Positions 7,691 to 64,000 of a stretch of DNA of 64,000 nt are shown piece after piece; the first letter of the stretch is position 1; each line of letters starts with the position of its first letter. The DNA is from Candidatus Wolfebacteria bacterium RIFCSPLOWO2_01_FULL_47_17b (GTDB lineage: Bacteria > Patescibacteriota > Minisyncoccia > UBA6257 > JAGOQP01), in NCBI GenBank assembly GCA_001793865.1, contig MGIS01000024.1, forward strand, positions 21,525 through 85,524, written 5' to 3'. The translations under genes were made by a program, and so were the position numbers. The notes under the pieces are model-generated. The model had not been told where the DNA came from. It saw nothing but the letters and a program-made list of their open reading frames with translations, and did no database searches.

Positions 7691-9942
7691 AGTTCTTTCC
7701 AGGTTTTACCTATTGATGCGGATACCGCAAGCGGCACCGAGAGTTTATACGCGGATTCCATTGTTTTTTTGATGTCCTGCACGATATCACTTTTGTCTCC
7801 GTTTTTGAGCATCGCATCCGGTATTTCGAATATGAGTTCGTCATGAATGGTGAGTATCATACGCGCTTTCGTGTGCACTTTCACCATCGCTAACTTCAGG
7901 ATGTCCGCGGCAAGTCCTTGGGTGGGCATATTGATGGCGGCGCGTTGGGCTTCGGACGCCATAAATTGATTTGACGCGTACAAGCCGGGCAGATGCCGAA
8001 TTCGTCCGCTCTCGTTTTGCACGTAGCCCTTTTTTCGCGCGCCGGTAAGTATTTTTTCCTGCCATTTTTTGATTGTTGCGAACTCCTCAAAATATTTTTG
8101 CATAAATTTCTTTGCCTCGTCGCCCGGAATGCCCGCCGATTGCGCGAACGCGCGATATCCCATGCCATACACCATGCCGAAGTTGAGCGTTTTTGCCATA
8201 CGGCGCATGGATTTGTCTACTTTTTCGTCGGGCACGCCGAATACGAATGCCGCCGTGCGGGTATGGATATCTTTTCCTTCGACGAATGCGTCCATCATCT
8301 GCTGGTCTTGCGTGAGGTGCGCGAGCACGCGAAGCTCGATTTGTGAGTAGTCACACGAAAGAAGCGAGTGGCCTTTGGCGGCCACGAACGCGCCGCGGAT
8401 TTCACCTGACCATTTTGATTCCTGCGGGATATTCTGCAGGTTTGGATTCGTGCAAGCGATGCGGCCCGTTGCCGCGCCTATTTGCAGGAACGTCGGATGT
8501 ATACGCCCGTCCTTTTGGACAAGGTCCTGCAAGGGATGCAGGTATGTTGTTCTGAGTTTGAATAATTCGCGGTATGCGAGCAGATCTTCGAGTGCTTTTG
8601 GCGGATCATTTATTTTTGCCAAAGCATCTGCAGATGTGGACTTGAGTTTGAGGCTGAATTTCGAGTTGAGCGCTTCAAGTACTTGCTTGGGCGAATTGAA
8701 ATTTATGTCGCTTATGGATTTTTTCAGCTTCTGTTCTTTCGTTTCAATCTCCTTTATGAGCTTGGTTTCAGTTTTTTTGAGGCGTGCTTTGTCTACCCGT
8801 ATTCCTGCTTTTTGCATATCTTCTAGGACCGGAATCAGCGGCCGTTCGATATTTTGCCATATGTCCCACAAGCCGCGCTTTTTCAGCTCTTTTTCGATTT
8901 GTGATTGCGGCATGCGCTTGTTCGGGTCCATTTCAAGAAGCTGGAGCATAATTTTTTCTTCCGGATTTAATTCGGAGTCGTGGGATTGTTTCCCCCGATT
9001 TTCCATCGGGGTCGCAATGACCGCGTGTGAACCCTCCAATCTTTTTATGAGCGATGTAAAGTTCTGTTCTTCAAAGAACGCGAGTGCTTTTTTGGGTGAA
9101 AATGAACACACAAGATCGGAGAGCTTGATGTCCACCGGTACGTTTTGGTCGATCGTCGCAAGCTCGCGCGAAAGGAATGCGATGTCTTTGTGAGATGATA
9201 TTTTTTCGTATGCCTTTTCGCCCCTTCCCTTGCTTAAAAAATCATCCAGTGTTCCGTACTTTTGTAGAATGGTTGCCGCGGTTTTGGGGCCCACGCCGGC
9301 AACGCCCGGGATATTGTCCGATGTATCTCCAACAAGCGCCTTGTAGTCTATGAGTTGGTCCGGCCTTAGGCCATAGCGTTCGTGTACGCGCGCTTCGTTG
9401 TATAGAAGCGTTTCGGAAACACCCTTTTTGAACGTTTCTACTTCCACCCCGTTAGAAGCAGATCGCCCCTCGGCGGTCGTAGCCATGCCTGCGGCAGGGC
9501 GGCTTCTAACGGGGTCCACGGCATCATCGTGCACCAATTGCAGCGAGTCAAGGTCTCCGGTGAGTATGCGCACCGGTTCCTGTTCTGAAAATTTTTTTGC
9601 GAGCGCACCAATGAGGTCATCTGCCTCGTAGCCCGCCTTTTCGATCCACGGTATCGAAAAGGCGTCGAATAAGTCATGGGCTTTTATTATCTGTGCGATG
9701 AGTTCATCGTCTGCCTTGGGCCGATGGATTTTATAGTCCGCAAATTTTTCCTTGCGGAATGTGGGTTCGGGCCGATCGAAGAGTGCCGCGCAATGCGCGG
9801 GTTTGGTTTGCTGGATGATTTTCAGCACAATGCCCGCTACACCGTATAAGGCGCCGGTTGGCTCGCCCTTTTTGTTCGTAAGCGGCGGGAGCGCATGGTA
9901 GCAGCGGTGTATTAGTGAATTGGCATCGATTAATAACAACAT
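7687..9942 (-). CDS. polA: DNA polymerase I (5'-3' exonuclease plus polymerase domains)
   Basis: Motif A 'DYSQIELRVLAHL', motif B 'RRMAKTLNFGMVYG', motif C 'HDELIFE', FEN-like N-terminus. Confidence 0.9.
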   Translation of the reverse strand: MLLLIDANSLIHRCYHALPPLTNKKGEPTGALYGVAGIVLKIIQQTKPAHCAALFDRPEPTFRKEKFADYKIHRPKADDELIAQIIKAHDLFDAFSIPWIEKAGYEADDLIGALAKKFSEQEPVRILTGDLDSLQLVHDDAVDPVRSRPAAGMATTAEGRSASNGVEVETFKKGVSETLLYNEARVHERYGLRPDQLIDYKALVGDTSDNIPGVAGVGPKTAATILQKYGTLDDFLSKGRGEKAYEKISSHKDIAFLSRELATIDQNVPVDIKLSDLVCSFSPKKALAFFEEQNFTSLIKRLEGSHAVIATPMENRGKQSHDSELNPEEKIMLQLLEMDPNKRMPQSQIEKELKKRGLWDIWQNIERPLIPVLEDMQKAGIRVDKARLKKTETKLIKEIETKEQKLKKSISDINFNSPKQVLEALNSKFSLKLKSTSADALAKINDPPKALEDLLAYRELFKLRTTYLHPLQDLVQKDGRIHPTFLQIGAATGRIACTNPNLQNIPQESKWSGEIRGAFVAAKGHSLLSCDYSQIELRVLAHLTQDQQMMDAFVEGKDIHTRTAAFVFGVPDEKVDKSMRRMAKTLNFGMVYGMGYRAFAQSAGIPGDEAKKFMQKYFEEFATIKKWQEKILTGARKKGYVQNESGRIRHLPGLYASNQFMASEAQRAAINMPTQGLAADILKLAMVKVHTKARMILTIHDELIFEIPDAMLKNGDKSDIVQDIKKTMESAYKLSVPLAVSASIGKTWKEL
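9447..9514. mobile_element. MITE-like palindromic element inserted in-frame in polA (TIR CCCCGTTAGAAGC / GCTTCTAACGGGG)
   Basis: 13-nt perfect terminal inverted repeats, 42-nt spacer, flanking TCCA direct repeat; element+TSD=72 nt=24 codons. Confidence 0.6.
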
Positions 9943-19601: not shown

Positions 19602-19649
19602 GTTGCTTTAAGTATAAGTCGTGTCTGCGAAAGTTCAAGCTATACGTGT

Positions 19650-19691
19650 CCCTGCCTTCACTTATGAACGATCGTCCATAAGCGAGGGCAG
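19650..19691. repeat. imperfect palindrome with ACGATCGT core (family copy 3, inverted relative to copy 2)
   Basis: 'CCCTGCCTTCACTTATGAACGATCGTCCATAAGCGAGGGCAGG'. Confidence 0.6.
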
Positions 19692-19779
19692 GTAGAGGGG
19701 GCGGTTGGTGAGGGGGATTTTATGCACATTTTTCGTTTGTATAAAGACCTCCACTAGTAGTATACTTATATTGTATGAA

Positions 19780-19909
19780 CCCCGCTAGAAGCCCTTGGCT
19801 GAAAATTTTTAACGAAATTTTCTGCGGGGCGCGAGCGGGGAGTTGTGCTATGGATAATCAAGTCACCCGAAATGAGCATGGGCTCTATAAGGACAGGCTT
19901 CTAACGGGG
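19780..19909. mobile_element. MITE-like element (TIR CCCCGCTAGAAG / CTTCTAACGGGG) immediately upstream of and overlapping start of ORF 19909
   Basis: Terminal inverted repeats with one mismatch; homologous to 58508-58634 copy; flanking TGAA direct repeat. Confidence 0.6.
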
Positions 19910-25923: not shown

Positions 25924-26030
25924 TTTTTAATTATGATTTTCGAATTTCGAATCAATTTTAAATGACTGAATTTCTAAAATCAATACATTCGAGTTTGACT
26001 CGAAATTCAAAATTAGAAATTCGGGATTAT
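25924..26030. repeat. AT-rich GAATTTCGAAT-type palindromic intergenic repeat, copy B (solo)
   Basis: ~90% identical to copies D and E. Confidence 0.7.
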
Positions 26031-26039
26031 ACCTAAAAC

Positions 26040-26558
26040 ATGCAATTTTCAGTACCACAATTCATTGATGTTGAAAGCAAGATTGTCGGGCCGCTGACCA
26101 TCAAGCAATTTGTGCTGGTGGCGGTGCCGGCATTGTTGACATTTGTGCTCTTTTTCGTACTGCACATTGCCTTCTGGATTCCGATCGCGGCAATCTTGGT
26201 TGGCGTTGGTGTATCGTTTGCTTTCATAAAAGTAGACTCCCGTCCTTTGTATATGATTGCGCTCTATGCCCTCAAATTCTTTTGGCAGCCGAAACTGTAT
26301 TTATGGAAGCCGGCGGTTATAACCGAGAAAGTTATTATTCCCGAGATACAAAAGAAACGATTCGAGCTTAAGACACTTATACCCGATTTTTCGAAGGTCA
26401 ATAAGCTATGGCAGGACATGACCACGACTAAAAACCCCATTCCGAAGCGCGAAAAAATACTTCCCAAAGCGATGCTGCAAGAAGTGCAAGAACAGTACCA
26501 GGTGTTTAGAAAATTGAGCGGCGAACGGGAGATAGCGAAGAGAGTGGACTTTAGATGA
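26040..26558 (+). CDS. PrgI/TcpE/VirB3-like small conjugation membrane protein
   Basis: Two adjacent TM helices after 'IVGPLTIKQFVLVAV' segment, precedes VirB4. Confidence 0.45.
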   Translation: MQFSVPQFIDVESKIVGPLTIKQFVLVAVPALLTFVLFFVLHIAFWIPIAAILVGVGVSFAFIKVDSRPLYMIALYALKFFWQPKLYLWKPAVITEKVIIPEIQKKRFELKTLIPDFSKVNKLWQDMTTTKNPIPKREKILPKAMLQEVQEQYQVFRKLSGEREIAKRVDFR

Positions 26559-27016
26559 AAATTTTGAATTTCGAGTTCTGAATTTCGAATCAATTTTAAA
26601 TTATTGAATTATGAAGAACAGGCTGTCAGATACAACATATAACCTTGAAGAGCGAACCGCCGCATTTGGTGAAAAGATTATTAAACTCTGCAGAAGCATC
26701 CCGCAAGATGTTATCACGAAACCAATCATTAATCAGCTCATCCGTTCCGGGACGAGTATAGGTGCAAATTATATGGAAGCGAATGCCGCTAGCTCAAGGA
26801 AAGATTTCAAGAACAAGATTTTTATCTGTAAGAAAGAATCTCAAGAAACGCAGCATTGGCTTAGGATGATGGCACAATGCGTGCCGGGAAAGAAGGAGGA
26901 AATTAGAAATTTATGGAAGGAAGTGCATGAGTTGATATTAATATTTGGAAAAATTGTTTCAACATTAAGAAATTAGAATTTGAATCGAAATTCAAAATCA
27001 AGAATTCGAAATTCCC
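26557..27016. mobile_element. loaded copy of AT-rich palindromic repeat carrying a four-helix-bundle gene between its arms
   Basis: Left arm 26560-26610 and right arm 26977-27016 match left and right halves of solo copies B/D/E. Confidence 0.6.
26611..26976 (+). CDS. four-helix-bundle protein (23S rRNA IVS-protein / Avd-like family)
   Basis: 'QLIRSGTSIGANYMEANAASSRKDFKNKIFICKKESQETQHWL' matches TIGR02436-type consensus. Confidence 0.7.
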   Translation: MKNRLSDTTYNLEERTAAFGEKIIKLCRSIPQDVITKPIINQLIRSGTSIGANYMEANAASSRKDFKNKIFICKKESQETQHWLRMMAQCVPGKKEEIRNLWKEVHELILIFGKIVSTLRN

Positions 27017-41599: not shown

Positions 41600-41720
41600 T
41601 AATATATTTAATTTTTAATTTTGACTTTCGAATTTCGAATCAATTTTTAATGATTGAATTTTCAAAATTAATACATTCGAGCTTGATTCGAAATTCAAAA
41701 TTAGAAATTCGAAATTATTA
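41600..41720. repeat. AT-rich GAATTTCGAAT-type palindromic intergenic repeat, copy D
   Basis: Near-identical to copy E including upstream 'tatatttaatttttaattttga'. Confidence 0.7.
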
Positions 41721-41762
41721 TTGATTTTGATACGGTGTATGGAATGCGGTATACTACTACAT

Positions 41763-45015: not shown

Positions 45016-45049
45016 TGTGCAGTGTGATATAGTTATGTATTATAGGAAT

Positions 45050-45165
45050 ATATTTAATTTTTAATTTTGATTTTCGAATTTCGATTCAATTTTAAATGAC
45101 TGAATTTCTAAAACTAATACATTCGAATTTGACTCGAAATTCAAAATTAGAAATTGGAAATTTTT
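45050..45165. repeat. AT-rich GAATTTCGAAT-type palindromic intergenic repeat, copy E
   Basis: Sequence near-identical to copies B and D. Confidence 0.7.
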
Positions 45166-45171
45166 AAACCC

Positions 45172-46996: not shown

Positions 46997-48487
46997 ATGA
47001 ATATAATGCGAATGTTACGAAATCGGAGCCCAAAGCTCGTAAGGTTTGGCCTTGGTTTGCGAAGGCCGAACCTTGGTTTTACGAGCTTTGGATGTAAGAA
47101 TTCTTTCACCCTGATTGAGCTCCTCATCGTCATAGGCATCCTCGCCATCCTCACCGCCGCAGTCGTCATCCTCCTCAACCCAGCAGAAATGCTCAAAAAA
47201 GGACGGGATGGTACCCGTATGCAGGACATTGCTTCGCTTGATACAACCATATCACTTCTTGAAACACAGGTATCCAATCTTGATCTGGGCATCGCCCAAA
47301 CCCTCTATATATCCATTCCCGATCCATCCCTATCAGGATCATCTACATCCACCTGTTCCTCACTTGGACTTCCAACACTTCCGAGCGGTTATACCTACCA
47401 CTGCGTATCCCAAGACAATCTCCGAAACGTAGATGGTACTGGCTGGCTCCCCGTGGACTTTACCCAATCGGGCATCACCTCTCTTCCCGCGCTTCCCATC
47501 GATCCTACCAACAGCACCTCTACAGGTCTTTTCTATCGCTACATACCCGGAGGCAGTTATCACTTGGAAGCACTACTTGAATCAAACAGCTATCTAGCTA
47601 CCGCTCAAAGTGATGGTGGCTCTTCTCCCTCTGCATTTGAAAAAGGATCCAACCTTACTCTTATGCCTCCCACCTTTCCTACCGGCTATGTGAAAGTACC
47701 AGGCAACTCAACCTTCGGTACCTCTGATTTCTATGTCATGCAGTATGAGGCGAAGTGTTTTGATGAAAACAACCAACCTCTTCCCTATACCACCGGAGAT
47801 GGAGGTGAGGGAGCAACGTACAACATATATCGAGACCTTTCATTCCCCTGCACATCCGCAAACAACAAGTATGTAGGATCCGCACCCACCGGAGCTCCTA
47901 TTACCCGCGTATCCCAAACAAACGCAATTGCCCGATGTGAAGCATCGGGTGCACATCTCATCACCAATAATGAATGGCAGACCATCGCGTGGAACATACA
48001 AAATAACGCAGTCAACTGGAGCGGCGGATCGGTGGGATCTGGTACCGTACCTCGTGGAAATTCAAACACGTCCGCGGCCATGAGTGACGCCTCTACATTG
48101 AGCGGAGTCAATTATCGAAAGCACATACTTTCAAACGGAAATGAGGTGTGGGATATGGCAGGAAATGTCTGGGATTGGACAAGCGATACCATTGTGGGAA
48201 CTAACAAACCCGCAGGCACGGCAGGTTCGTGGGTTGAATTTACCGCCGTATCAAATTACGGGACACTCTCCCGCTCACAGTTTGGTCCCGTTGACAGCTC
48301 GTGGAGTGCTACGCAAGGTCTTGGTCGCTACTATATGGGAACCGCCGATGGAACAACTTACGCCTTTCTACGCGGCGGCGATTGGGGTGATAGCACGAAC
48401 GCGGGGGTTGAGACGCTGTACCTGACCTACACGCCGGGCTATACGGAGAAGCTACATCGGGTTCCGTTGCGCGAGGTAGTCGTGTAG
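46997..48487 (+). CDS. DGR target protein: type IV pilin-like N-terminus plus C-terminal C-type-lectin/FGE-fold variable region
   Basis: Prepilin-type helix 'FTLIELLIVIGILAILTAAVVILL'; C-terminal VR (48360-48480) matches TR with A-specific differences. Confidence 0.8.
   Translation: MNIMRMLRNRSPKLVRFGLGLRRPNLGFTSFGCKNSFTLIELLIVIGILAILTAAVVILLNPAEMLKKGRDGTRMQDIASLDTTISLLETQVSNLDLGIAQTLYISIPDPSLSGSSTSTCSSLGLPTLPSGYTYHCVSQDNLRNVDGTGWLPVDFTQSGITSLPALPIDPTNSTSTGLFYRYIPGGSYHLEALLESNSYLATAQSDGGSSPSAFEKGSNLTLMPPTFPTGYVKVPGNSTFGTSDFYVMQYEAKCFDENNQPLPYTTGDGGEGATYNIYRDLSFPCTSANNKYVGSAPTGAPITRVSQTNAIARCEASGAHLITNNEWQTIAWNIQNNAVNWSGGSVGSGTVPRGNSNTSAAMSDASTLSGVNYRKHILSNGNEVWDMAGNVWDWTSDTIVGTNKPAGTAGSWVEFTAVSNYGTLSRSQFGPVDSSWSATQGLGRYYMGTADGTTYAFLRGGDWGDSTNAGVETLYLTYTPGYTEKLHRVPLREVVV
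48360..48480 (+). repeat. DGR variable repeat (VR)
   Basis: ~120 nt aligned to TR 48942-49060; about 10 of about 13 mismatches at TR adenines. Confidence 0.8.
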
Positions 48488-48928: not shown

Positions 48929-48941
48929 GACTGCACAATGG

Positions 48942-49060
48942 ACGCCTTTCAACGCGGCGGCGATTGGAATAATAGCACGAACGCGGGGGTTGAGACGCTG
49001 AACCTGAACAACACGCCGGGCAATACGAACAACAACATCGGGTTCCGTTGCGCGAGGTAC
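48942..49060 (+). repeat. DGR template repeat (TR)
   Basis: Adenine-rich relative to VR (AAC/AAT codons). Confidence 0.8.
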
Positions 49061-49211: not shown

Positions 49212-50210
49212 ATGTTTGATCAACTCACTTCATTTCAAAATCTGCACCAAGCGTATCGGGATGCGAGAAAAGCAAAAAGATATCGCCCCGCTATCCTGCG
49301 ATTTGGATGCATGCTTGAAAAGGAACTTCCAATACTGCGGGATGCATTGCGCAACGGGACGTATGTACACGGCACCTACAGGACATTTATTGTTTCCGAT
49401 TCCAAAAAACGAATCATTCAAGCAGCTCCATTTCGCGATCGAGTGGTGCACCACGCGGTGTGCAATGTGATAGAGCCATTGTTCGAGCGTACCTTTATAC
49501 ACGACTCATACGCGTGCCGAAAGGACAAGGGGACGCATGCGGCGGTCAAACGATTGCGTTCGTTCATGCAAAGTTGCGGGGGGGGGGGGTCCAGGGTCTT
49601 CTGCCTGAAATGCGACATATCCAAATACTTCGATTCCATAGATCACGGAATATTATTGGGGCTACTGAAGAAGGGGCTACGAAAAGAAACCAAGGTTGAA
49701 CCTTCGCAGACCAAGGTTCAACCTTGGTCACTTCTCAATCTCTGCGAGCAGATCATCCGAAGCGTTCCTTCGGGCGTACCCATAGGCAATCTCACGAGTC
49801 AATTATTCGCAAACATCTATCTCAATGAACTTGACCAGTATGTGAAACGCGTACTCAAAGAACGATACTATATCCGCTATATGGATGATTTTCTTATTTT
49901 GAGTACGGATGCAGAGCATTTGTACAAACAACGAGAGTGCATACGCGCATTTTTGCGGGATCGATTGAAGCTTGTTTTGCATCCAAAAAAATCATCCATA
50001 TTTCCAATCATGCCCAACGGCATAGATTTTCTAGGATATCGTGTGTTCACGCACCATGTGGAATTGCGGAGATCTACCGTACAAAGGTGGAAGAGAAAAT
50101 TCAAAAATCTTCCGGCGGATCTCAGATCGGACGCGATTCGTGATTGGAAAGGATACACGAAGCATGCGAAATCGTGGAAGACGGTTCAAGGATTGCGGAT
50201 TTTGAAGTAA
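49212..50210 (+). CDS. DGR reverse transcriptase
   Basis: 'IGNLTSQLFANIYLNELD' and 'YIRYMDDFLIL' (YxDD) motifs; upstream ORF-track start 49071 overlaps TR. Confidence 0.85.
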   Translation: MFDQLTSFQNLHQAYRDARKAKRYRPAILRFGCMLEKELPILRDALRNGTYVHGTYRTFIVSDSKKRIIQAAPFRDRVVHHAVCNVIEPLFERTFIHDSYACRKDKGTHAAVKRLRSFMQSCGGGGSRVFCLKCDISKYFDSIDHGILLGLLKKGLRKETKVEPSQTKVQPWSLLNLCEQIIRSVPSGVPIGNLTSQLFANIYLNELDQYVKRVLKERYYIRYMDDFLILSTDAEHLYKQRECIRAFLRDRLKLVLHPKKSSIFPIMPNGIDFLGYRVFTHHVELRRSTVQRWKRKFKNLPADLRSDAIRDWKGYTKHAKSWKTVQGLRILK

Positions 50211-53288: not shown

Positions 53289-53966
53289 TTATTCAAATGG
53301 GTATAGCGGGTCGTTATTCTTTGGTGCGGTTATTTTTTTGGCCGTATAGCCGGACAGCCGGGGATTTTTTTTGAATGTCAGTTTTTGTTTATCCCATACG
53401 GGGAACAGTGCGGGGCCGTGTGTGCGTCGAAAAAAATCGTAGTCTGAAGAGTGCTTTTTTGCTGTGAAAATATTTGCAATAACAAGTGGTGTGCCGCGGG
53501 ATGCCTGTATGGTTATATGTCCGTACACGCCGGGAATATGTACATACGATCCTTCCTCTGCGCGTACGAGTATGATTTCTTTTTTAGTAGCGTGCTGCAG
53601 GTAGAACAGACCTTGTCCGTGAAGTACCTGGTACAGTTCGGCTGGCCGAGTACTACCGATTCGTTTGTGTATGTGGCCTATGGTCCGTACGGCTTCCGGG
53701 CCGATGGTTCCATACTGCAGGACGGTTATATCGTATCGAATGCCCTGTTTTCTGAACAGTTGCGTATGCGAAGGGAATCGAACGTTACGGTAAATATAAT
53801 ACAATGGTTTGGGAATTGCAAGTGTCCGGGTGTGCGGCATAAAAAATTCTTCATTTCCAGCGTAGTGCCGTTTTTCCACTGGGTCGTGCTCCAGCTTGGA
53901 AGAAAATATAAGGCCGCGCTTCGTGAGTGTTATTGGAAGGCCTGAGATGTGTTGTAGGGAAATCAT
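53289..53966 (-). CDS. cupin-type glucose-6-phosphate isomerase-like protein
   Basis: 'TIGHIHKRIGSTRPAELYQVLHGQGLFYLQ' matches cPGI metal-binding pattern. Confidence 0.5.
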   Translation of the reverse strand: MISLQHISGLPITLTKRGLIFSSKLEHDPVEKRHYAGNEEFFMPHTRTLAIPKPLYYIYRNVRFPSHTQLFRKQGIRYDITVLQYGTIGPEAVRTIGHIHKRIGSTRPAELYQVLHGQGLFYLQHATKKEIILVRAEEGSYVHIPGVYGHITIQASRGTPLVIANIFTAKKHSSDYDFFRRTHGPALFPVWDKQKLTFKKNPRLSGYTAKKITAPKNNDPLYPFE

Positions 53967-53984
53967 GAGAGAATTATAAATTTT

Positions 53985-54060
53985 AAATTATAAATCAGTT
54001 TTTAATTACTAAATTATAAAATTCAGACCTTGATTTTAAATTTATAATTTATAATTGGAA
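53985..54060. repeat. AT-rich hairpin (ATAAATTTTAAATTATAAATCA / TGATTTTAAATTTATAATTTAT), distinct from GAATTTC family
   Basis: ~22-nt inverted arms between convergently ordered minus-strand genes. Confidence 0.5.
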
Positions 54061-54061
54061 A

Positions 54062-55732
54062 TTAACGTGATACCCGTTTTGTCTTCGCATACCATTCGGT
54101 GATGCGGACAAAGCGGGCGTCGGGCGTCGCGATGGTGTCTATGGGAGCGCCGATTGTATGCGCTTGCGTGAGATATATGTACTGCGGGGAAGCTATGAAG
54201 AGTGCGGGTGTTTGGGAGACGATCTCTTGTGCAAGAATCGCCAGCGTTTCATTCCTGGATTGCGATTGAGGATCGATGGATCGCAGCTGCAAAAGTAGTT
54301 CATCTATGGTGCCGCTTTCATAAAGCGAGAAGTTAAGTCCCGGGTAAAACCGTTCGTTTGAATGCCAGAACGATGTAAGATCCGGCATAGGGAGTAGAAT
54401 ATTCCCATATATGATCATTTCGTAGTTTCTAGTTTTCAGTACATCTTCGGAAAAGAGATTTGCGTCGGTTGTTTCAATCTTCGTTTTGATCCCGACGGTT
54501 TCCCATTGGTTCCGCACCGATTCGGCGATTTGCCGCACGATCGGAGAGTCGGGGATTTTTATGGTGAACATAAGTTGCGCGAGCGTTTCATCGTCGGTTA
54601 CCGTATTCCATGTGCGAGTTTCGTCGTCAAAGAACCACCCGTTGTCTTCAAGCAGGCGATGGGCTTCATCGGTATTTCCTTGGGCTGGTACGGGGTTTTG
54701 AAGCGCGGTATCTTGGTATGCCGGCAACGGTCCTTGTTGAACCACTGCGTGTCCCGCGAAAACATCTTGTATAAGTGCTTCGCGGTCCACAAAGAGCCAT
54801 AGTGCGCGTCGTACCGCGGGTGACGCCAGGGCGGAATGCGCATTCTGGTTCAGGAACACCGCGTAGTATCGGGACGTTGAAATATTGTTTTGTTGGGTGT
54901 TTATTTCGGCGTATTCGGCAATGCGAGGCGTAAAACTGCCGAATCCGTCTATCAGTCCCTTATTGAACGAACGCATGAGTAAATCTTCGTTTTCAAAGTA
55001 CAGCATTACGAATCGATCCAGGTGTGGCAGTGTGCCGATCGCGTGGTACCGTTCGTTTTTCTTCATAAATATGCTTGTAATAAAGCCGTCCGCGCGCTTT
55101 TCGAGCTCCTCGAATACGAATGGTCCGCTTCCGATAGGCTTGAGGTTAAATGCCGAAAGCCGAATATTCGCAGGAGAAAGATCGGCAAAGTATTTCTTCG
55201 GGATGGGGCGAAGATCGTGCAGGAGATTTTCGAAGAGCGCGTAGGTATTGACTGTTTCAAAGAGAACTTCCCGTTCGCTGACGCGCTCAACGCTTACGTT
55301 CTGCCAGTTGGAAAAATGCGGACTTGCCGCGTCTGTGTTTTGGATGATTTGTACGGTGAATACAATGTCGTCGCTTGTAACGGGGGTGTTGTCGTGCCAA
55401 ACGGCTTCCTCTTTCAAGCGCAGACTCCAGCTCCTGAACTCCTCATCGTGTTCAATAAGCTCGGCAAGATCGTAGACTGAGGCAAACAGGAGTGCTACCG
55501 CGTCCCGGTCCGCGCTGCCTTCCCGCGCAAGCACGGGATTGAGGTAGGCGACCTGTCCGACAACTCCTTCGGTGAACGTACCACCCTGTGCCGGTACCGA
55601 CACGGTGTAGGTGTTGATAAGCTGGATGATCAAAAGCACGCCCGTTAGGAGTACGAGCGCCGAACACACCAGAAAGATCGTGAACTCTTTGGGTGAGAAA
55701 GATTTGATAGCGGACAAAAACGTGTGAAGCAT
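54062..55732 (-). CDS. extracellular solute-binding protein, family-5 (peptide/nickel ABC SBP-like), membrane-anchored
   Basis: N-terminal TM anchor, size/pattern of SBP_bac_5; no adjacent ABC permease. Confidence 0.45.
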   Translation of the reverse strand: MLHTFLSAIKSFSPKEFTIFLVCSALVLLTGVLLIIQLINTYTVSVPAQGGTFTEGVVGQVAYLNPVLAREGSADRDAVALLFASVYDLAELIEHDEEFRSWSLRLKEEAVWHDNTPVTSDDIVFTVQIIQNTDAASPHFSNWQNVSVERVSEREVLFETVNTYALFENLLHDLRPIPKKYFADLSPANIRLSAFNLKPIGSGPFVFEELEKRADGFITSIFMKKNERYHAIGTLPHLDRFVMLYFENEDLLMRSFNKGLIDGFGSFTPRIAEYAEINTQQNNISTSRYYAVFLNQNAHSALASPAVRRALWLFVDREALIQDVFAGHAVVQQGPLPAYQDTALQNPVPAQGNTDEAHRLLEDNGWFFDDETRTWNTVTDDETLAQLMFTIKIPDSPIVRQIAESVRNQWETVGIKTKIETTDANLFSEDVLKTRNYEMIIYGNILLPMPDLTSFWHSNERFYPGLNFSLYESGTIDELLLQLRSIDPQSQSRNETLAILAQEIVSQTPALFIASPQYIYLTQAHTIGAPIDTIATPDARFVRITEWYAKTKRVSR

Positions 55733-57247: not shown

Positions 57248-58483
57248 ATGCTCGATATCAAAATGGTGCAAAAGGCGGTCGAACAGCTGGCCGCGGAAAA
57301 GGATCTTGATCCGAAGCAAATTATGGAGGCGCTCGAAGCGGCGCTTGTTTCCGCGTATAAAAAAGAATACAACAAGCGCGGTGAAGTGATCCGCTGCAAT
57401 TTGGACACCAAGACCGGCGATATGCATTTCTACCAGATAAAGACCGTGGTAGATGATACGCTTGTGAGGTTCCCGGTAGAGGGGGAGGAAGAAGAACAGC
57501 AACGCGTTGAGGAGCCACGGCGTGAAGTCGGGGTTCCGGCCGAAACTTCGGAAGAGCAACTGCCGTTGTTTAACGAAGAGCGCCACATGACGCTTGATGA
57601 GGCAAAAAAGGTAAAGAAAGACGCCGCTGTGGGCGACGAGTTTACATTTGATCTCGAGACTCCTTCTATGGATTTCGGGCGCATTGCCGCGCAGACCGCA
57701 AAGCAGGTCATTATGCAGAAATTGCGCGAGATCGAAAAAGACGCCATTAAAAAGGAGTTTGAGGGTCGCGTTGGAGAGCTTGTGACTGGTGTTTTACAGC
57801 GCATCGAACGGGGGAATGTATTTGTGGATTTAGGGCGCGCGTCTGGTGTTATGTTTTTTTCAGAGGCGATCCCCGGCGAGCATTACCGTATCGGCGAGCG
57901 GCTGAAGTTTTATCTTTTGCAGGCGCAGGAGAGCGGCCGGGGGCCGAATCTGCTGTTATCCCGCTCGCATCCCCGCTTTGTTACAAAACTTTTTGAACTT
58001 GAAGTTCCCGAAATCGCGGATGGCGTGGTACAAATAAAGGGTATTGTGCGGGAGCCGGGTAGCCGGTCCAAGATTGCGGTTGCGACCGAGGAGGACGGCG
58101 TGGATCCGGTTGGATCGTGCGTGGGTCAGCGAGGCGCGCGCGTGCTTGCGGTAACCAGCGAACTTGGAAGCGAAAAAACCGATATTATCGAATGGTCTGC
58201 GGATCCAGAAAAATATGTGTCGGCAGCTTTGAGTCCAGCGACCGTTACGGCGGTTGAGCGCACCGGAGACCGTGAGGTCCGCGTACTTGTTCCTGAGGAT
58301 CAGCTGAGTCTTGCGATCGGCAAAGGGGGGCAAAATGCCCGCCTCGCGGCGCAGCTGACCGGTATGAAAATCGATATTCGTTCGCAATCCCGCCCCGAAG
58401 AGAAGCAGGAGGGAGGGGTCGCCGAAGTGCCCGAAGGCGAAGAGGCTATGTCTGAGGAGAAAAATGAGGACGCCGAAGAGTAA
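57248..58483 (+). CDS. nusA: transcription termination/antitermination factor NusA
   Basis: N-terminal domain, S1 'GELVTGVLQRIERGNVFVDLG', two KH domains, acidic tail. Confidence 0.9.
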   Translation: MLDIKMVQKAVEQLAAEKDLDPKQIMEALEAALVSAYKKEYNKRGEVIRCNLDTKTGDMHFYQIKTVVDDTLVRFPVEGEEEEQQRVEEPRREVGVPAETSEEQLPLFNEERHMTLDEAKKVKKDAAVGDEFTFDLETPSMDFGRIAAQTAKQVIMQKLREIEKDAIKKEFEGRVGELVTGVLQRIERGNVFVDLGRASGVMFFSEAIPGEHYRIGERLKFYLLQAQESGRGPNLLLSRSHPRFVTKLFELEVPEIADGVVQIKGIVREPGSRSKIAVATEEDGVDPVGSCVGQRGARVLAVTSELGSEKTDIIEWSADPEKYVSAALSPATVTAVERTGDREVRVLVPEDQLSLAIGKGGQNARLAAQLTGMKIDIRSQSRPEEKQEGGVAEVPEGEEAMSEEKNEDAEE

Positions 58484-58507
58484 ATAATGTATACTACACA
58501 TATGAAT

Positions 58508-58634
58508 CCCGTTAGAAGTTCTTGGCTGGAAAAATTTGTAAAATTTTTCTCGGCGCATACAATACGGGATATATTAATAAATAAAGTTTTCTAAAAATGA
58601 TTTCTGTATCATATAAGGATAAACTTCTAACGGG
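58508..58634. mobile_element. MITE-like element (TIR CCCGTTAGAAGTT / AACTTCTAACGGG) abutting clpP start codon
   Basis: 13-bp perfect stem; ATGAAT direct repeats flank it (58502-58507 and 58635-58640). Confidence 0.6.
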
Positions 58635-59225
58635 ATGAATCTCGTACCAATGGTCATAGACAAGTCCCAGTTCGGTGAACGGGCATACGATATTTTTTCC
58701 CGCCTTTTGAAGGAGAGGATTATTTTTGTCGGCGGGCCGATCAGCGATGAAGTTGCCAATCTTGTGATTGCCCAGCTTCTGTTTTTGGACCATGAAGATC
58801 CGAAAAAAGATATTCAAATGTACATCAACAGCCCTGGGGGATCGGTTACGGCTGGGCTTGCTATCTATGATACGATGCAGCATGTGCGCCCCGATGTATC
58901 TACAATTAGCGTGGGGATCGCCGCCTCCATGGCATCGGTGCTTTTGGCGTCCGGCAAAAAAGGTAAGCGCTACGCATTACCCAATTCCGAGATTCTTTTG
59001 CATCAAGTGATGGTGGAAGGGATCGGTGGTCAGGCAAGTGAAATTGAAATCGGAGCCAAGCAAATTTTGAAACTTAAACAGCGGCTCAATGAGATGCTTG
59101 CAAAACACACGGGCCAAACGCTTACCAAGATCGAAAAAGACACCGATCGCGATTTTTATCTTACGGCGGATGAGGCCAAGGCATACGGCATCATTGATAG
59201 CATCATCAAGTCAAAAATAAAATAA
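58635..59225 (+). CDS. clpP: ATP-dependent Clp protease proteolytic subunit
   Basis: '[19 protein letters not shown]', catalytic Ser in '[11 protein letters not shown]'. Confidence 0.9.
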
Positions 59226-60241
59226 TGGCGAACATCGCCCTTTTTCACATATCCGGCTGGGAACGGGAATATCTGACAAAGAAGCTTACCGATGCGGGAC
59301 ATTCGGTAGATGTGTATGACCACTCCCTTGATGCAGAGCACCTCCCCGACAAGCGGGACTACGAGGTGCTTTCTGTTTTTGTGGGATCGGCGGTGACTCC
59401 GGATGTGATCGATGCGTTTGGGAGCGTAAAGCTGATCACAACCCGTTCGACTGGATACGATCATGTGGACATTGCACATGCTCGGCAGAAAGGGATTTCG
59501 GTGGGATACGTACCGCATTACGGCGAAAACACCGTCGCGGAGTTTGCGATGGGGCTTTTGCTTACGCTGTCCCGCAAGCTGTATCTGGGTATTGACCGCA
59601 TTAAGGAGACGGCGCAATTTTCATATGAAGGACTGGAAGGTTTTGATTTGAAAGGAAAGACCGTTGGCGTAATAGGAACGGGCAGGATCGGCAAGCATTT
59701 CATACAGATGCTGAAGGGATTTGATGCGCGGGTTGTGGCGTACGATGTGTATCCGAACAAAGAGCTTGCCGCGGAGCTTGGCTATACAATGGTCTCACTG
59801 GATGAGCTGTATGCCGCAAGCGACATTATTTCCCTGCATTGCCCCTGCACGCCCAAAACAACGCACTTGCTCAATAAAGAAGCATTTTCAAAGATGAAAA
59901 AAGGAGTTGTGCTTATAAATACAGCGCGCGGCGCGCTCATTCAGACCGAAGCGCTCGTGGCCGCCCTGCAGAACGGCACGGTGGCCGGCGCAGGGTTGGA
60001 CGTACTGGAGGAGGAGGGAGTTGCATCGGATGAAATGGGCTATGTTATGCACGGCGGAAGTTTGGACAAGGCCCGTACGATGCTTGCGAACCATATCCTT
60101 ATGGATCATCCCAATGTGGTCATCACGCCGCATAACGCGTTCAATACCAAAGAAGCAAAAACCCGCATTTTAGACGCTGATTTCGAAAACATCACTTCGT
60201 TTCTCACCTCCTCCGTCCCGGCCTTTCCGGTCAAGATTTAA
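59225..60241 (+). CDS. D-isomer-specific 2-hydroxyacid dehydrogenase (NAD-binding)
   Basis: 'GVIGTGRIGKHFIQMLKGFDARVVAYD' Rossmann motif, catalytic His region. Confidence 0.8.
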   Translation: MANIALFHISGWEREYLTKKLTDAGHSVDVYDHSLDAEHLPDKRDYEVLSVFVGSAVTPDVIDAFGSVKLITTRSTGYDHVDIAHARQKGISVGYVPHYGENTVAEFAMGLLLTLSRKLYLGIDRIKETAQFSYEGLEGFDLKGKTVGVIGTGRIGKHFIQMLKGFDARVVAYDVYPNKELAAELGYTMVSLDELYAASDIISLHCPCTPKTTHLLNKEAFSKMKKGVVLINTARGALIQTEALVAALQNGTVAGAGLDVLEEEGVASDEMGYVMHGGSLDKARTMLANHILMDHPNVVITPHNAFNTKEAKTRILDADFENITSFLTSSVPAFPVKI

Positions 60242-61004
60242 TCTTGCACGGTGTTGTTTGTGCAAGATTAAATCTTGGACATTTTTGAATACAAGGATTG
60301 AATTTCGTTTGCATTTGGGTTTTGAAGCCAATTCGTTATTTCTTTCTCATATTTATCTGGCCCATTAAAAAAATCCATAAGAAATTTTCTATTTGTAACA
60401 AGTGGGAAGTTTGGTGTTCCGATATAATCTAGATGGCTACTCCATCTATACCCACTCAAATACTCCATTGCTTTTCGGGGATTCTCAACGCCTCCATTCC
60501 TCCATTCTGGAAATTTTAAATCGAGAGGATTTAGGTGGATGTAATACGGTAGGTGGAGAAGGTGTGCGTCTTTTTTAACTTCCGCAGATTTATATGTCCC
60601 TTGAAACAGTGAGCCAGATCGTTCGTATTTTATGTTGAAATACATCGTGTATGCTATTCCTATCTTCTGCATGAATTTTTGAATTCCATCTTTCTTAATT
60701 TCTTGTAGCATAAGGTGGAAGTGGTTTGGCATCAGGCAAAAAGCAAGAATGTTCACTAAGGGACTTCCTTTTCTCTCCTTTTTTAGGTTTTCTTCGTCTA
60801 TGTCTTCTATTCTTCGTTTAGTATTTTTCTCTGATGTTTCTGTTGAATTGAATTCAAATAAATCTAGGACAAGTCGTATCCTATCTTTATCTTCTTGAAA
60901 TATGTTTCTTTTATCTACACCTCTGTTGTATATATGGAAGATTTTATTCATTTTATTTTAATTCAAGATTAAATCTTGCACATGATGTGCAAGATTTAAT
61001 CTTG
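60232..61004. mobile_element. IS200/IS605-like unit: HuH gene flanked by subterminal hairpins (60232-60277 and 60964-61004)
   Basis: Left CAAGATTTAATCTTGCAC-N10-GTGCAAGATTAAATCTTG; right perfect 20-nt-arm palindrome CAAGATTAAATCTTGCACAT/ATGTGCAAGATTTAATCTTG. Confidence 0.65.
60268..60951 (-). CDS. IS200/IS605-like (RAYT-like) HuH Y1 transposase family protein, second paralog
   Basis: 'MPNHFHLML' HuH; clearly homologous to 14369-15085 product ('IYHIYNRGV', 'ERSG-LFQG-K', 'LPYYIH-N-LD'). Confidence 0.6.
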   Translation of the reverse strand: MNKIFHIYNRGVDKRNIFQEDKDRIRLVLDLFEFNSTETSEKNTKRRIEDIDEENLKKERKGSPLVNILAFCLMPNHFHLMLQEIKKDGIQKFMQKIGIAYTMYFNIKYERSGSLFQGTYKSAEVKKDAHLLHLPYYIHLNPLDLKFPEWRNGGVENPRKAMEYLSGYRWSSHLDYIGTPNFPLVTNRKFLMDFFNGPDKYEKEITNWLQNPNANEIQSLYSKMSKI

Positions 61005-61012
61005 AACGCCGG

Positions 61013-64000
61013 CTATTCCTGGAAGTAATATCGGGTGGGGTCGGTTGCGGCGAGGTAGTAGGTTTGGCCGCCGGCGCTGGAAAAGCCGAGTACATAATAC
61101 GCGACGGTGAGGAAATCGTTTGGTGATAGTGTGCCAACCTGTTCTTTGATGAGGTCTATGTGGATCGAACTGGCGCCTACGCTGTTTGGATGAATATAGT
61201 TTTGATTAACGGGGCAAGATGCGGCGTTGTCGTTCAGCACAAGCGCGGGCGCGGTGGTTTGTTTGTTGTTGCATTTACGATATGAGACGGGCAGGGCGGA
61301 TGCGCGCATGTCTTCGCTCCACTCTGCATCAAGTGCTTGACCCCCTCCGACGTGGAATGAGCTCATTGTGGCTGGGTCGCTATTCAAGAAGAAGATGACA
61401 AGCTTGGCAGAGCCGCTTCCAGTATTTTGTGTGTATAGATCCGGTATAAAAGGATATGCATCATATTGCAGTTCAACAGTAGGGGATTCTTGGCTGGTGA
61501 ATAAGATATTTGATACATATGCGGGTATGTCGATATCCCCTTTGTATGAGACGCCGACCGTTGTTGCAGTTAGTGCGGTTGCGCGGATGGCGTAAGTTCG
61601 CCCAACTTCTGATATTTGGAAGCGGTAATAATCAACATCGGCTGTACCCATCTTGACAGGATTATCGGGATCGGATACATCTTCTATAAGATAGTGTTCA
61701 TTTTCCTGTAGTTCTCCTTGCCAGCTCGCGACAAGCGCAGGCGCGAACCGTTGCATGTCGCGTTCCTCTTCGGGCGTATCCTGTAAACTCGCGAGGTATT
61801 CAAGAGTAAGTGTTGACGTGTCTGTGGTCTCGTCTTCCCCAACTTCTTCCGGGGGACCACATATATTTATTTCTCCCGGTGTCGGAGCCCCTGGGCACCA
61901 CACACTTTCCGTAATCTGCAAAGAGTTTCCGGTTTCACTTGCTCCCCATGAAGAATCAAACTCCACTGAATCAATTTTTAAGTCACTGTTATACAAGGCA
62001 AGCGTGTCTGATTCGTTTTTTATGGAGCAGGATGGGCAGGAGCTTTGTAAAAGCATGCCCGAAAAGCCTGGAAATTCTTCCAGGAATCCATTTGTGTCAT
62101 ATGCGATGATCGCATATTCGCCTGGAGACAATACTGCGTCTCCTTGCGCTGGCGTTATCGTGTGTTTTGTACCCTCTTTCTCGGTATGTTTCCAGTTCAG
62201 CAGGTCGGCGTTAGTTGTATCTTCATTAAAAATTTCTATCCATTCCCGACCATTATCTGCTCCAATCGGGTCGTAATATATTTCGGTAATCGTAACCGCA
62301 GTAAATATGGGCGAGGGGCTTGGTGAGGTGGATGGGAACGGTGAGATGGTTGGGGATGCTGACGCGGCTGGTGAGGACGAAGGTGAGGGCGAAAGTGTTG
62401 GATCGGCGTCGTTTGCTTCACTCCCTCCTACCCCTCCGCCGGAGGATGATCCCCCAGTCTGTGATGGAGTAGAATTTGTCCTTTTAGGCGTGCCGTCGGT
62501 TATCGAGGATGTGTACCATACGCGGGTCGATTCATTACGCTCCATTGTTTTACGGCTCGAAGCATTTCCCGCTTGCCACTTTGTGTTTGTAAGTGCGTCT
62601 ATGATGCCGCATGCGGCATTGAACAGGTATAGTTTCTCTCCTTCATTTGCCAACGTGCCAGTATATATTATATCTGCTTTGATCCCCGGCATAGAAGTAT
62701 CATCCGTGCGCTCAAGCAGGGCATAGGCGTCTGCCTGGATTGTTATGCTTGGAAACGACATATCCACCGATCCGTCAGCTGTTTTTAGCCCCCAACCGGA
62801 AAGGTTTATGCTTGAGTTGGAGATATTTTTCAGCTCGATCCACTCGTTTGCCGCGCTTTTGGTTGTTCCCATCCATGCGATTTCGGTTATGAGAATTGGG
62901 GAATAGGTGGGTGTCGCGTTTGTTGGAATGGAGCAGGTGTTTGGTACGGGGGATGGTGACGGAGTTGGTTTAGGCGAGAGCGTTGCTTTTAGTGTTGGCG
63001 TTGGCTTTGGTGATGCTTTTGCTTGCGGTAAGCTTGTTGAAGCCGGAGATGTTTTTGGCGAGGAAGAGGGTCTATATGTTGGGGTGGGAGATTTTTGAGG
63101 TGCAACCTCCCCGGACCGAGGTTGAATATCGGTGACAGGCGATGTGACAATCTTAGGCGAACTTATAGGAATCGTAATAATCTGCTCATTATTCGACGAC
63201 CCTCCGCCGAAGATCGAATTGATTGTATTTTCGGCGAATTCAATTATTTGGCCTATAAATGTTTTCTTTTTGGTGAGGAATTCGGGATTATTTTTATTTT
63301 TCTCGGCTTCTTGAAAGAAGAGATCTATGACTCCCGCGCTGTATTCTATTGCTTTTTTTGAAAGCAGGTTCCAGTAGTCGTTCATTACGACATTGTTTTC
63401 TAGAGTAAAATCTTTTTTTGTTGTTATTAGAGCACTTGAACCACTTACCTGTGTATAGAGGTGAAGTTCTTTTCCAGATTCGTCTTTCCCTATTCCATAT
63501 AATAGATTTCCAATCTGTATTACATCGGTTGGTTGTGGTTTACTATAACCGCTTTGAATTCCGATCGTATCTTTGCTGTAGAAATTATTATTTGAATATA
63601 CAGCGAGATCGGTGAAGAATGAGTCAAGGTTGGGGAGTATTTTTGGCGTCAAGCCTGCGTTTCTGGGTGCGTTTGCGTAGTCGGGAGCGTCGGGATTGAA
63701 TCGCTTTGCGTAATTTTCATACGGACTTCCTTCGGGATGTGTATCGTTTCGGGTATGGTCTGGCACGGATGTGTCTTCCATAAGGTGCAGAATGTGCCCG
63801 AGGGTGAATAGCGCCATTTCTTTTTCACCTTGTATCCAGTATCTCAAGGCCTCGTTCCATGTAAAATCGGATGTGGGGAAGTACGGCTGTATTTTCCCAG
63901 ACTGCATAGCGGAAAGAACCGTGGCGATGACGGGTGAATACACAAAAGATGTTTGGTTCTTGGAATCTTGCGCCCAATCCTTTGATTTCTGCCAGTTTCC
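61013..64000 (-). CDS. very large secreted protein with Zn-phospholipase-C/P1-nuclease-like N-domain, Pro/Ser/Thr linkers and two lamin-tail domains (5' end beyond window)
   Basis: 'LGHILHLMEDTSVPDHTRNDTH' Zn site-like; LTD motifs 'ILITEIAWMG...EWIELKN' and 'VTITEIYYDP...EWIEIFN'; frame open to window edge. Confidence 0.55.
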   Translation of the reverse strand, partial: GNWQKSKDWAQDSKNQTSFVYSPVIATVLSAMQSGKIQPYFPTSDFTWNEALRYWIQGEKEMALFTLGHILHLMEDTSVPDHTRNDTHPEGSPYENYAKRFNPDAPDYANAPRNAGLTPKILPNLDSFFTDLAVYSNNNFYSKDTIGIQSGYSKPQPTDVIQIGNLLYGIGKDESGKELHLYTQVSGSSALITTKKDFTLENNVVMNDYWNLLSKKAIEYSAGVIDLFFQEAEKNKNNPEFLTKKKTFIGQIIEFAENTINSIFGGGSSNNEQIITIPISSPKIVTSPVTDIQPRSGEVAPQKSPTPTYRPSSSPKTSPASTSLPQAKASPKPTPTLKATLSPKPTPSPSPVPNTCSIPTNATPTYSPILITEIAWMGTTKSAANEWIELKNISNSSINLSGWGLKTADGSVDMSFPSITIQADAYALLERTDDTSMPGIKADIIYTGTLANEGEKLYLFNAACGIIDALTNTKWQAGNASSRKTMERNESTRVWYTSSITDGTPKRTNSTPSQTGGSSSGGGVGGSEANDADPTLSPSPSSSPAASASPTISPFPSTSPSPSPIFTAVTITEIYYDPIGADNGREWIEIFNEDTTNADLLNWKHTEKEGTKHTITPAQGDAVLSPGEYAIIAYDTNGFLEEFPGFSGMLLQSSCPSCSIKNESDTLALYNSDLKIDSVEFDSSWGASETGNSLQITESVWCPGAPTPGEINICGPPEEVGEDETTDTSTLTLEYLASLQDTPEEERDMQRFAPALVASWQGELQENEHYLIEDVSDPDNPVKMGTADVDYYRFQISEVGRTYAIRATALTATTVGVSYKGDIDIPAYVSNILFTSQESPTVELQYDAYPFIPDLYTQNTGSGSAKLVIFFLNSDPATMSSFHVGGGQALDAEWSEDMRASALPVSYRKCNNKQTTAPALVLNDNAASCPVNQNYIHPNSVGASSIHIDLIKEQVGTLSPNDFLTVAYYVLGFSSAGGQTYYLAATDPTRYYFQE

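Follow-up and report, generated by a model that had tools for sequence, protein, structure and literature searches.

A small mobile element on the clpP start codon of a Candidatus Wolfebacteria genome and its probable origin from a family of start-capturing GIY-YIG nuclease genes

How can a gene keep its start codon when a mobile element has settled on it? The question is raised by clpP of Candidatus Wolfebacteria bacterium RIFCSPLOWO2_01_FULL_47_17b, which lies in a 64,000-nt stretch of contig MGIS01000024.1 (positions 21,525 to 85,524), referred to below as the window. Downstream of the end of nusA (58483) the sequence reads ATGAAT (58502-58507), CCCGTTAGAAGTT (58508-58520), 101 nt of A+T-rich DNA, AACTTCTAACGGG (58622-58634) and again ATGAAT (58635-58640). 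An earlier note, made from the sequence alone, had described an element of 127 nt, with a terminal stem of 13 perfect base pairs, between two copies of ATGAAT, the downstream copy being the clpP start. This description is correct: the second ATGAAT opens a 196-aa open reading frame (ORF) that is 100% identical to an annotated Candidatus Wolfebacteria ClpP and has the canonical ClpP N-terminus, MNLVPMV. At clpP a small mobile element has indeed been inserted. We think it likely that it is a non-autonomous, internally degraded member of a Patescibacteria-wide selfish family, whose parent is a GIY-YIG nuclease gene that captures the start codons of host genes.

The insertion in front of clpP

That the element had been inserted was suggested already in the earlier note, and the suggestion is borne out by close relatives. 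Two contigs (L009 and L010), whose ClpP is 92% identical to that of the window, read TATACT-atcgtt-ATGAAT-clpP, with a single ATGAAT, nothing in between and a nusA-clpP gap of 50 nt (cctTTATACTatcgttATGAATtta). The arrangement in the window is TATACT-acacat-ATGAAT-element-ATGAAT-ctc. The single ATGAAT of the relatives, 6 nt after the -10-like hexamer, marks an empty site, thus the element in the window is an insertion. A more distant relative (ClpP 88%) is also without the element, and in the window's own species it was present in all 19 of 19 contigs. A third lineage (ClpP 90-91%; L007, also L011, L012 and L014) reads TATACT-acgcgt-ATAAAT, followed by approximately 124 nt ending in TATATAAGGA and then by ATGAAT-clpP. 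This segment (L007, 2860-3006) occupies the exact clpP start site, where ATAAAT is a mutated decoy, and has no family termini; its alignment with the window element is weak (score 76 vs 50 ± 7 for shuffles). This could be the same insertion in decayed form or an independent insertion at the same site. Because the three lineages are about equally distant by clpP DNA identity (78-83%), one old insertion with precise loss and two independent insertions fit alike.

The perfect 13-bp stem of the clpP element reaches 14 bp if T58507 is allowed to pair with A58635. The G+C content of the element is about 30%, against about 52% in the surrounding DNA, and its predicted RNA fold has an energy of -38 kcal/mol (z = -5.7). 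The terminal 13-mer, with up to 2 mismatches, occurs at 8 sites in the window where 1.38 were expected, and 8 was reached in 0 of 100 shuffles; the 11-mer core of the terminus gave the same excess, which shows that the terminal repeat is not due to chance. Partial termini at 55374, 55641, 57472 and 57812 were in the wrong order or too degenerate and were treated as chance matches. As the earlier note had anticipated, the insertion does leave a decoy ATG and a structured leader in front of clpP. TATACT (58490..58495) may act as the promoter. A scan of 58300-58800 for consensus promoters and terminators found no terminator and a single internal site that resembled a promoter weakly and did not outdo those in shuffles. 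The upstream ORF (uORF) created by the insertion had no Pfam match. Read-through from the element into ClpP was considered and rejected, as the two ATGs are 133 nt apart, out of frame, and the stop codon of the uORF is at 58592.

A search of the window with the subfamily profile found exactly three copies, all of them non-coding derivatives (Table 1). [quoted passage not shown] The second copy occupies the start of a membrane-type ORF of 258 aa, with ATGAAC before it and GTGAAT after it, i.e. the old start is ATG and the rebuilt start is GTG. The uORF that begins at the old ATG (19775) spans this whole element, and its TGA overlaps the rebuilt GTG (GTGA, 19909-19912), a classical arrangement for coupling. 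Identity between the two long copies is 74%, and their stems differ by a double compensatory change (GTT/AAC vs GCC/GGC). The third copy together with its duplication amounts to 72 nt, an in-frame insertion of 24 codons without stops in polA. The 24 additional residues, DPVRSRPAAGMATTAEGRSASNGV, fall within the 5'-3' exonuclease domain of DNA polymerase I.

The stable hairpin, the compensatory change between the long copies and the placement at translation starts could also be expected of a conserved cis-regulatory RNA, such as a leader, a thermometer or a riboswitch-like hairpin, which controls clpP and other genes and is not mobile. This interpretation is largely refuted by the empty site in close relatives. 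The copies precede unrelated genes and one is inside polA, the interiors belong to many unrelated subfamilies with only the termini conserved, both orientations occur within the window's subfamily, and coding full-length forms exist (see below). A known structured RNA family was likewise rejected: with the Rfam 15 covariance models the window had no match at gathering thresholds, and 58400-58750 gave only chance-level hits (E > 1). We consider a regulatory RNA very improbable.

Family termini, target duplication and start codons

The termini of the clpP element, YCCCGTTAGAAG...CTTCTAACGGGR, are shared by copies at at least 120 loci in many Patescibacteria lineages. These were found by scanning one genome per species with the pattern CCCGYTAGAAG-N85-115-CTTCTAACGGG, which yielded at least 120 loci (L015-L134) and 131 copies; the pattern did not include flanks, hence it provides an unbiased test of the insertion position. 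Judged by record title, almost all of the listed loci are from Patescibacteria; the titles name Kaiser-, Nealson-, Nomura-, Staskawicz-, Jorgensen-, Falkow-, Moran-, Lipton-, Sungii- and Levyi-bacteria, Kazan and, for many of the bins, Saccharibacteria. The interiors fall into many subfamilies, which have only the termini in common. A few matches carry labels from outside Patescibacteria (L030, L074 and L090; Syntrophobacter, delta proteobacterium, Bdellovibrionales), all at non-start sites; these could reflect mis-binning or spread beyond the radiation.

Directly behind 95 of the 131 listed copies (73%) lies an RTG with a reading frame of 60 codons or more, and behind about ten more the ATG comes 2 nt further on. 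The neutral expectation in the same loci is 2.3%, the proportion of TNNA sites in start register, or 13% if ORF-internal sites are discarded. The position on a start codon is a rule of the whole family and not a one-off accident at clpP. Among the host starts, 3 of 63 were preceded by a Shine-Dalgarno (SD)-like 4-mer, and 24 of 63 had TAnnnT 5-8 nt upstream of the ATG, with a peak at 6 nt, a context of the leaderless type. The uORFs end at or before the host start in 63 of the 63 cases analysed, and the ATG-to-ATG distances across the family fall in all three classes modulo 3.

The element boundaries were analysed in 94 start-codon copies with enough flank, taken from the listed matches. The base before CCCG was complementary to the base after CGGG in 92 of the 94 (T.A in 73, C.G in 19). 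Flank positions -5 to -2 equalled positions +2 to +5 in about 80% of the copies, whereas position -1 equalled +6 in only 19%. In comparisons of related copies the closing pair was common to both members of all 50 pairs, and the 4-nt flank differed in 30 of the 50. The closing pair is thus complementary and is inherited with the element, unlike the host flank, which assigns T58507 and A58635 to the element and reduces the duplication to 4 bp. A duplication of the start-codon region, as suggested in the earlier note, did take place at clpP, but its length is 4 bp (TGAA) and not the 6 bp of ATGAAT. The clpP ATG is chimeric, because its A58635 is element DNA. Perfect 4-nt duplications flank 92 of the 131 listed copies; the duplicated sequence has T in the first position in 89 and A in the fourth in 70 of these 92, the most frequent versions being TGAA (41) and TGGA (12). 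The elements end with Y...R, and with the terminal purine the rebuilt host start is ATG or GTG; upstream, the codon is still ATG.

The association with start codons could have arisen without targeting: if insertion into TNNA sites were random, purifying selection in very compact genomes might have left only those copies by which a start codon or a promoter box (-35 or -10) is restored. This alternative concerns the targeting of the elements and not their mobility. Non-start copies (e.g. L028 5657, L091 985, L023 2119, L078 3394, L041 544 and 1248) are flanked by 6-nt GTNNAC repeats, namely GTTGAC, GTATAC(T), GTAAAC and GTTTAC, some of which resemble promoter boxes (-35 or -10) and would be preserved by the duplication. 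Copies beside such promoter-like hexamers (GTTGAC, GTATAC(T)), which the duplication would rebuild, favour selection, and a start-less ORF would be expressed, and so propagated, only behind an in-frame ATG. Non-coding derivatives, on the other hand, gain nothing from an ATG, yet the start share of these mostly non-coding copies is far above the higher of the two neutral expectations, and the copies of one non-coding subfamily (CGCGATC type) all have the same orientation towards the host gene (32:0); these two observations favour a directional mechanism. We regard an origin of the start association entirely from selection as a serious possibility, albeit not the one we would choose.

When the non-coding listed copies are oriented by their host gene, an ATG-started ORF of at least 10 codons (10-32) ends at the TAA of the right terminus in 53% of them, against 15% on the reverse strand. 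A small peptide made from non-coding copies was rejected as an explanation: the peptides show no conservation over and above that of the DNA, and the clpP copy lacks such an ORF. The model does not account for this bias.

The nuclease-coding form of the element

The start-codon rule can be explained by the design of the full-length element, which is a GIY-YIG ORF without an ATG of its own. An unpaired terminus led to a 280-nt element on a Jorgensenbacteria contig (L058), which has the same ends and flanks, ATGAAC-CCCGTTAGAAG...CTTCTAACGGG-GTGAAC. It contains a single ORF of 93 codons, extending from the upstream ATG to a TAA within the right terminus, which is followed after 4 nt by the regenerated host start. 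The protein matches Pfam GIY-YIG (PF01541) with 63.6 bits against a cut-off of 22.6 (E = 2e-17). A protein search returned 956 homologues, mostly of 93 aa, with a conserved M-(N/S)-PVRS N-terminus and (D/G)F C-terminus; the consensus of 24 aligned homologues is M(N/S)PVRS..WYVYVL...WYIGST..KRIL.HN.GKN.STK..PWK.IYCE...DARAREKYLKSGMGRRYLKNRLKFFFA.(D/G)F. It follows from the conserved protein ends that the left repeat codes for P-V-R-S and the right repeat for x-F-stop. Compared with solved structures, a profile of the 24 members matched the UPF0213 proteins 1zg2 (E = 9e-7) and 1ywl, and SLX1 (7wme, 4xlg). The full-length ORF is therefore predicted to encode a GIY-YIG nuclease of the UPF0213/Slx1 type.

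Full-length copies were also found in other settings. The copy in L108 has variant termini (CCCGTTAGAGAC/GTCTCTAACGGG) and its TGA stop overlaps the host ATG, the copy in L135 lies between hisF-like and hisH-like genes with its ATG overlapping the upstream stop codon (ATGA), and those in L137 and L140 are inside another small operon. We dropped the idea that the open promoter complex of leaderless genes is targeted, since L135 and L137 are on operon-internal starts that overlap the upstream stop. A metagenome scan for termini 245-275 nt apart found 88 loci with 90 elements, 56 of which were GIY-YIG-like; these represented 50 non-redundant copies, 24 of them intact. Of the 24 intact copies, 13 had both an ATG in frame at -6 and, after the rebuilt RTG, a host ORF, and none of the oriented metagenome copies had flanks that placed a host gene on the opposite strand. 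The remaining copies were frameshifted relics or were at non-start sites.

The window-type subfamily retains a weak remnant of the 3' end of the nuclease gene (z = 2.5-4.2 in 7 of 7 members). In the clpP copy the promoter-side arm of the inner hairpin resembles the reverse complement of the 3' subterminal region of this gene (z = 2.8). We assign the stretch 58507..58635 to the GIY-YIG cassette family as a non-coding, MITE-like derivative, and the 280-bp cassette is a candidate for the autonomous partner of the clpP element.

These data can be combined in the following scheme. The full-length form of about 280 bp consists of a 93-aa GIY-YIG ORF bounded by 12-14-bp repeats, the ORF having no start of its own and its ends being supplied by the coding repeats. 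The element occupies a 4-bp target, mostly TGNA, that overlaps the host start codon (A|TGNN). The nuclease ORF then depends on the host ATG and the host expression signals, and the 4-bp duplication together with the terminal purine of the element rebuilds the host RTG, 4 nt past the nuclease stop or overlapping it. In the window copy the coding interior is missing, and a 129-nt hairpin is left between the old leaderless-type start and the rebuilt clpP ATG. If clpP is transcribed from TATACT, the 5' end of the mRNA would be at or near A58502. Ribosomes starting at the old ATG would translate the 30-codon junk uORF and melt the 5' arm of the stem, which would expose the otherwise paired clpP ATG for reinitiation. 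Host genes in general, including clpP after its uORF, are presumably translated by such termination-reinitiation. It is presumably also the GIY-YIG protein that mobilises the elements, and the manner in which it would cut and join DNA is conjectural. Slx1 cuts branched and stem-loop DNA, thus a GIY-YIG relative would suit the palindromic ends.

It is also conceivable that the elements are ordinary MITEs, moved in trans by an unrelated transposase (a DDE enzyme or the nearby IS200/RAYT-like Y1), and that the GIY-YIG ORF is a captured passenger. DDE transposition typically leaves terminal inverted repeats with a short duplication, there is a Y1_Tnp gene 1.6 kb downstream (60268-60951), and GIY-YIG nucleases are not known to transpose. 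However, the 280-bp form has space for the GIY-YIG ORF alone, and this ORF spans both repeats, its PVRS and F-stop ends being conserved in hundreds of proteins. A search of 0.94 Mb of family loci for a larger autonomous element, with termini 250-5000 nt apart and matching duplications, did not find one, nor did the termini pair around a larger gene in these loci. As to the Y1 gene, it is flanked by a different hairpin repeat, CAAGATTWAATCTTG (family D6), and elements of the IS200/IS605 and REP (repetitive extragenic palindromic) types make no target duplication. We consider movement by an unrelated transposase unlikely.

Another way of dealing with the insertion would be to skip it at the level of RNA or translation, by intron-like excision or by ribosome bypassing between the identical ATGAA sequences, in which case the upstream ATG would be the real clpP start. 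Identical take-off and landing sequences flank a hairpin in the bypassing of T4 gene 60, the same is seen here, and the upstream ATG has retained its promoter context. Nevertheless, the flanks are direct repeats, so the helix does not extend to a bulge-helix-bulge motif, there was no match to a ribozyme or intron model, and the interiors are not conserved. Moreover, the interior of the full-length form is a nuclease ORF with its own stop, and elements with a C.G closing pair show ATG upstream and GTG downstream. Skipping seems to us highly improbable.

Several points weigh against descent of the clpP element from a start-capturing nuclease gene. The homology of the non-coding interior to the nuclease gene is weak, as the z values above indicate, and a global alignment of the window element with the nuclease gene was uninformative; there is no full-length copy within the window. 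To our knowledge the GIY-YIG domain only hydrolyses DNA, and we know of no strand-transfer or ligation activity in the family. Host repair or a ligase would have to complete an insertion by a hydrolytic nuclease, and it may be that the nuclease is a passenger. Selection after insertion, instead of targeting, could account for the start-codon enrichment, the criterion of at least 60 codons behind the 73% share can take in some internal RTGs, and the scans demanded exact termini, so decayed copies are under-sampled. The uniform orientation of the CGCGATC-type subfamily is left unexplained by the model. Taking these points into account, we still favour the nuclease gene as the probable parent.

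Other repeats, known systems and implications

The features of the locus and the repeats of the window are collected in Table 1.

Table 1. Positions of the clpP-locus features, the family copies and the other repeats in the window
Feature	Position	Strand	Remarks
-10-like hexamer TATACT	58490..58495	+	6 nt 5' of the original start codon; leaderless-type context
Original clpP start A and first TGAA copy (58503-58506)	58502..58506	+	Now opens a junk uORF
Element proper, 129 nt, ends T...A	58507..58635	.	nhmmer E = 4e-20 against the subfamily profile
Left terminal inverted repeat TCCCGTTAGAAGTT	58507..58520	+	Encodes P-V-R-S in full-length elements
Right terminal inverted repeat AACTTCTAACGGGA	58622..58635	+	Family TAA at 58628-58630; last base is the A of the clpP ATG
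Inner A/T hairpin GCTGGAAAAATTT-GTA-AAATTTTTCTCGGC	58525..58554	+	Conserved in the subfamily
Insertion-made uORF, MNPVRSSWLEKFVKFFSAHTIRDILINKVF-stop	58502..58594	+	30 codons; stops 40 nt before the clpP start
Second TGAA copy of the target duplication	58636..58639	+	Seen in the sequence
clpP, 196 aa	58635..59225	+	First base of the start codon is the terminal A of the element
Second copy, 130 nt, ends C...G	19780..19909	.	E = 4e-23; target duplication TGAA at 19776-19779 and 19910-19913
Third copy, 68 nt	9447..9514	.	Inside polA (minus strand); target duplication TCCA at 9443-9446 and 9515-9518 (TGGA on the coding strand)
Y1_Tnp (IS200/RAYT-like), 227 aa	60268-60951	-	About 33% G+C
Paired hairpin repeats CAAGATTWAATCTTG	60228-60280, 60960-61007		Bracket Y1_Tnp (unit 60228-61007)
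AATTTCGAATT-type units	9990-10115, 25913-26032, 26555-26615, 26957-27013, 41600-41721, 45047-45166, 53965-54063		About 120 nt, A+T-rich, palindromic; 73-90% identical, both orientations
Palindrome GAGGTTCAACCTTGG...CCAAGGTTGAACCTC, 35-39 nt	12194-12232, 25228-25264, 47041-47079, 49687-49725, 63095-63129		Five copies
Palindrome CTGCCC(C/T)CACTTAAGRACGATCGTYCWTAAGTGAGGGCAG, 35-43 nt	17691-17725, 18383-18425, 19649-19691		Three copies
G+C-rich segment, 98 nt	48353-48450, 48935-49032		87% identity, 582 nt apart

The place of Y1_Tnp is taken by an LTD-domain gene in L007, L008 and L012, which indicates that Y1_Tnp is a separate recent insertion. The palindromic units made of AATTTCGAATT-like words have no relation to the CCCGTTAGAAG termini and probably form another MITE-like family. 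The GAGGTTCAACCTTGG...CCAAGGTTGAACCTC palindromes may be REP-like hairpins or terminators. One CTGCCC(C/T)CACTTAAGRACGATCGTYCWTAAGTGAGGGCAG palindrome is located just 5' of the second family element, and the 98-nt segment is probably a repeated domain within one gene.

The clpP element has the features by which MITEs are recognised: a perfect 14-bp repeat, a target duplication as judged against the empty site, a length of 129 nt without coding capacity in multiple copies, and a longer coding element with the same termini. It resembles the Correia elements of Neisseria and the enterobacterial ERIC sequences in size (100-150 bp), terminal inverted repeats, short duplication and high copy number, as well as in being co-transcribed with neighbouring genes as hairpins and in presence/absence polymorphism between relatives. 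Correia and ERIC elements are lineage-restricted and intergenic, and have no fixed relation to start codons; in contrast, the 11-12-nt termini of the present family span many Patescibacteria lineages, about three quarters of the copies are on a start codon, and the terminal purine rebuilds the start. Rickettsia palindromic elements (RPE) are of similar size and also palindromic, and the 72-nt insertion in polA is like them in being tolerated in frame as a peptide. RPE differ in having no known coding parent and no start-codon rule, and an in-frame internal copy is the exception in this family.

With free-standing GIY-YIG homing endonuclease genes (T4 seg, I-TevI family) the full-length form shares a GIY-YIG nuclease as sole product, a selfish character and the sparing of the host gene. 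Homing endonucleases, however, have large DNA-binding domains, whereas the element protein is a bare 93-aa catalytic domain, and they act on a single long cognate site and are propagated by recombinational repair, with no inverted repeats or duplication. Classification as a homing endonuclease gene was rejected, as the family copies are at many unrelated genes and have inverted repeats and a 4-bp duplication. The UPF0213/YhbQ proteins and the eukaryotic Slx1 have the same small GIY-YIG core and are the closest solved structures by sequence profile; unlike the element ORFs, they are encoded by ordinary single cellular genes with their own starts and no bounding repeats.

REP/REPIN-RAYT systems are similar in having hairpin doublets of about 100 nt, and here too a Y1_Tnp gene is nearby. 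REPINs, unlike the clpP element, make no target duplication and match the hairpins around their RAYT gene. We rejected the idea that the clpP element is a REP or REPIN of the nearby Y1_Tnp, since a duplication is present and the gene is flanked by CAAGATTWAATCTTG and not by CCCGTTAGAAG. An integron attC site was rejected because of the order of the core sites: attC has RYYYAAC ... GTTRRRY, and the termini of the element, GTTAGAA ... TTCTAAC, have the opposite order on either strand.

GIY-YIG ORFs have been described within non-intron insertions of rRNA genes of the Candidate Phyla Radiation (CPR), i.e. in the same bacterial radiation and likewise outside introns (PMC11270868). That work concerns rRNA genes, and its passages on GIY-YIG make no mention of terminal repeats or duplications, of the capture of start codons, or of derivatives without coding capacity. 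In the open-access literature we found no description of the terminal motif, of a prokaryotic GIY-YIG element with inverted repeats, or of start-codon MITEs in this radiation. The clpP copy is a small non-coding transposable element of a known kind; the family, a minimal nuclease gene that captures and rebuilds start codons, is not a known one. Tentatively, it could represent an unrecognised class of prokaryotic mobile elements, in which an ORF without a start codon, for a minimal structure-specific GIY-YIG nuclease, is enclosed in inverted repeats, integrates specifically at start codons, exploits the initiation signals of the host gene and returns the ribosome to this gene at a rebuilt RTG 4 nt past its own stop, and whose non-coding derivatives occupy many starts throughout the Patescibacteria, those of essential genes such as clpP among them.

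If this is true, it would have consequences for how these genomes are read. In hundreds of genes the true start would lie behind a stable hairpin and a decoy ATG with its junk uORF, which would affect gene callers and expression models, and many entries annotated as 'GIY-YIG nuclease family proteins' would stem from ORFs of the element. The family would make start-site selection in the SD-poor, leaderless-type genes of uncultured bacteria, and reinitiation after a uORF, testable. No known mobility enzyme would be smaller than a GIY-YIG domain of 93 aa that acts on palindromic ends of 12 bp, and such a domain might become a useful tool. Beside introns and inteins, there would be a third route by which a nuclease gene can spare its host, and the genomes of Patescibacteria, which rank with the most reduced ones known, would tolerate a parasite spread over the whole radiation because the 4-bp duplication and its own last base give back the start codon and it is nearly harmless.

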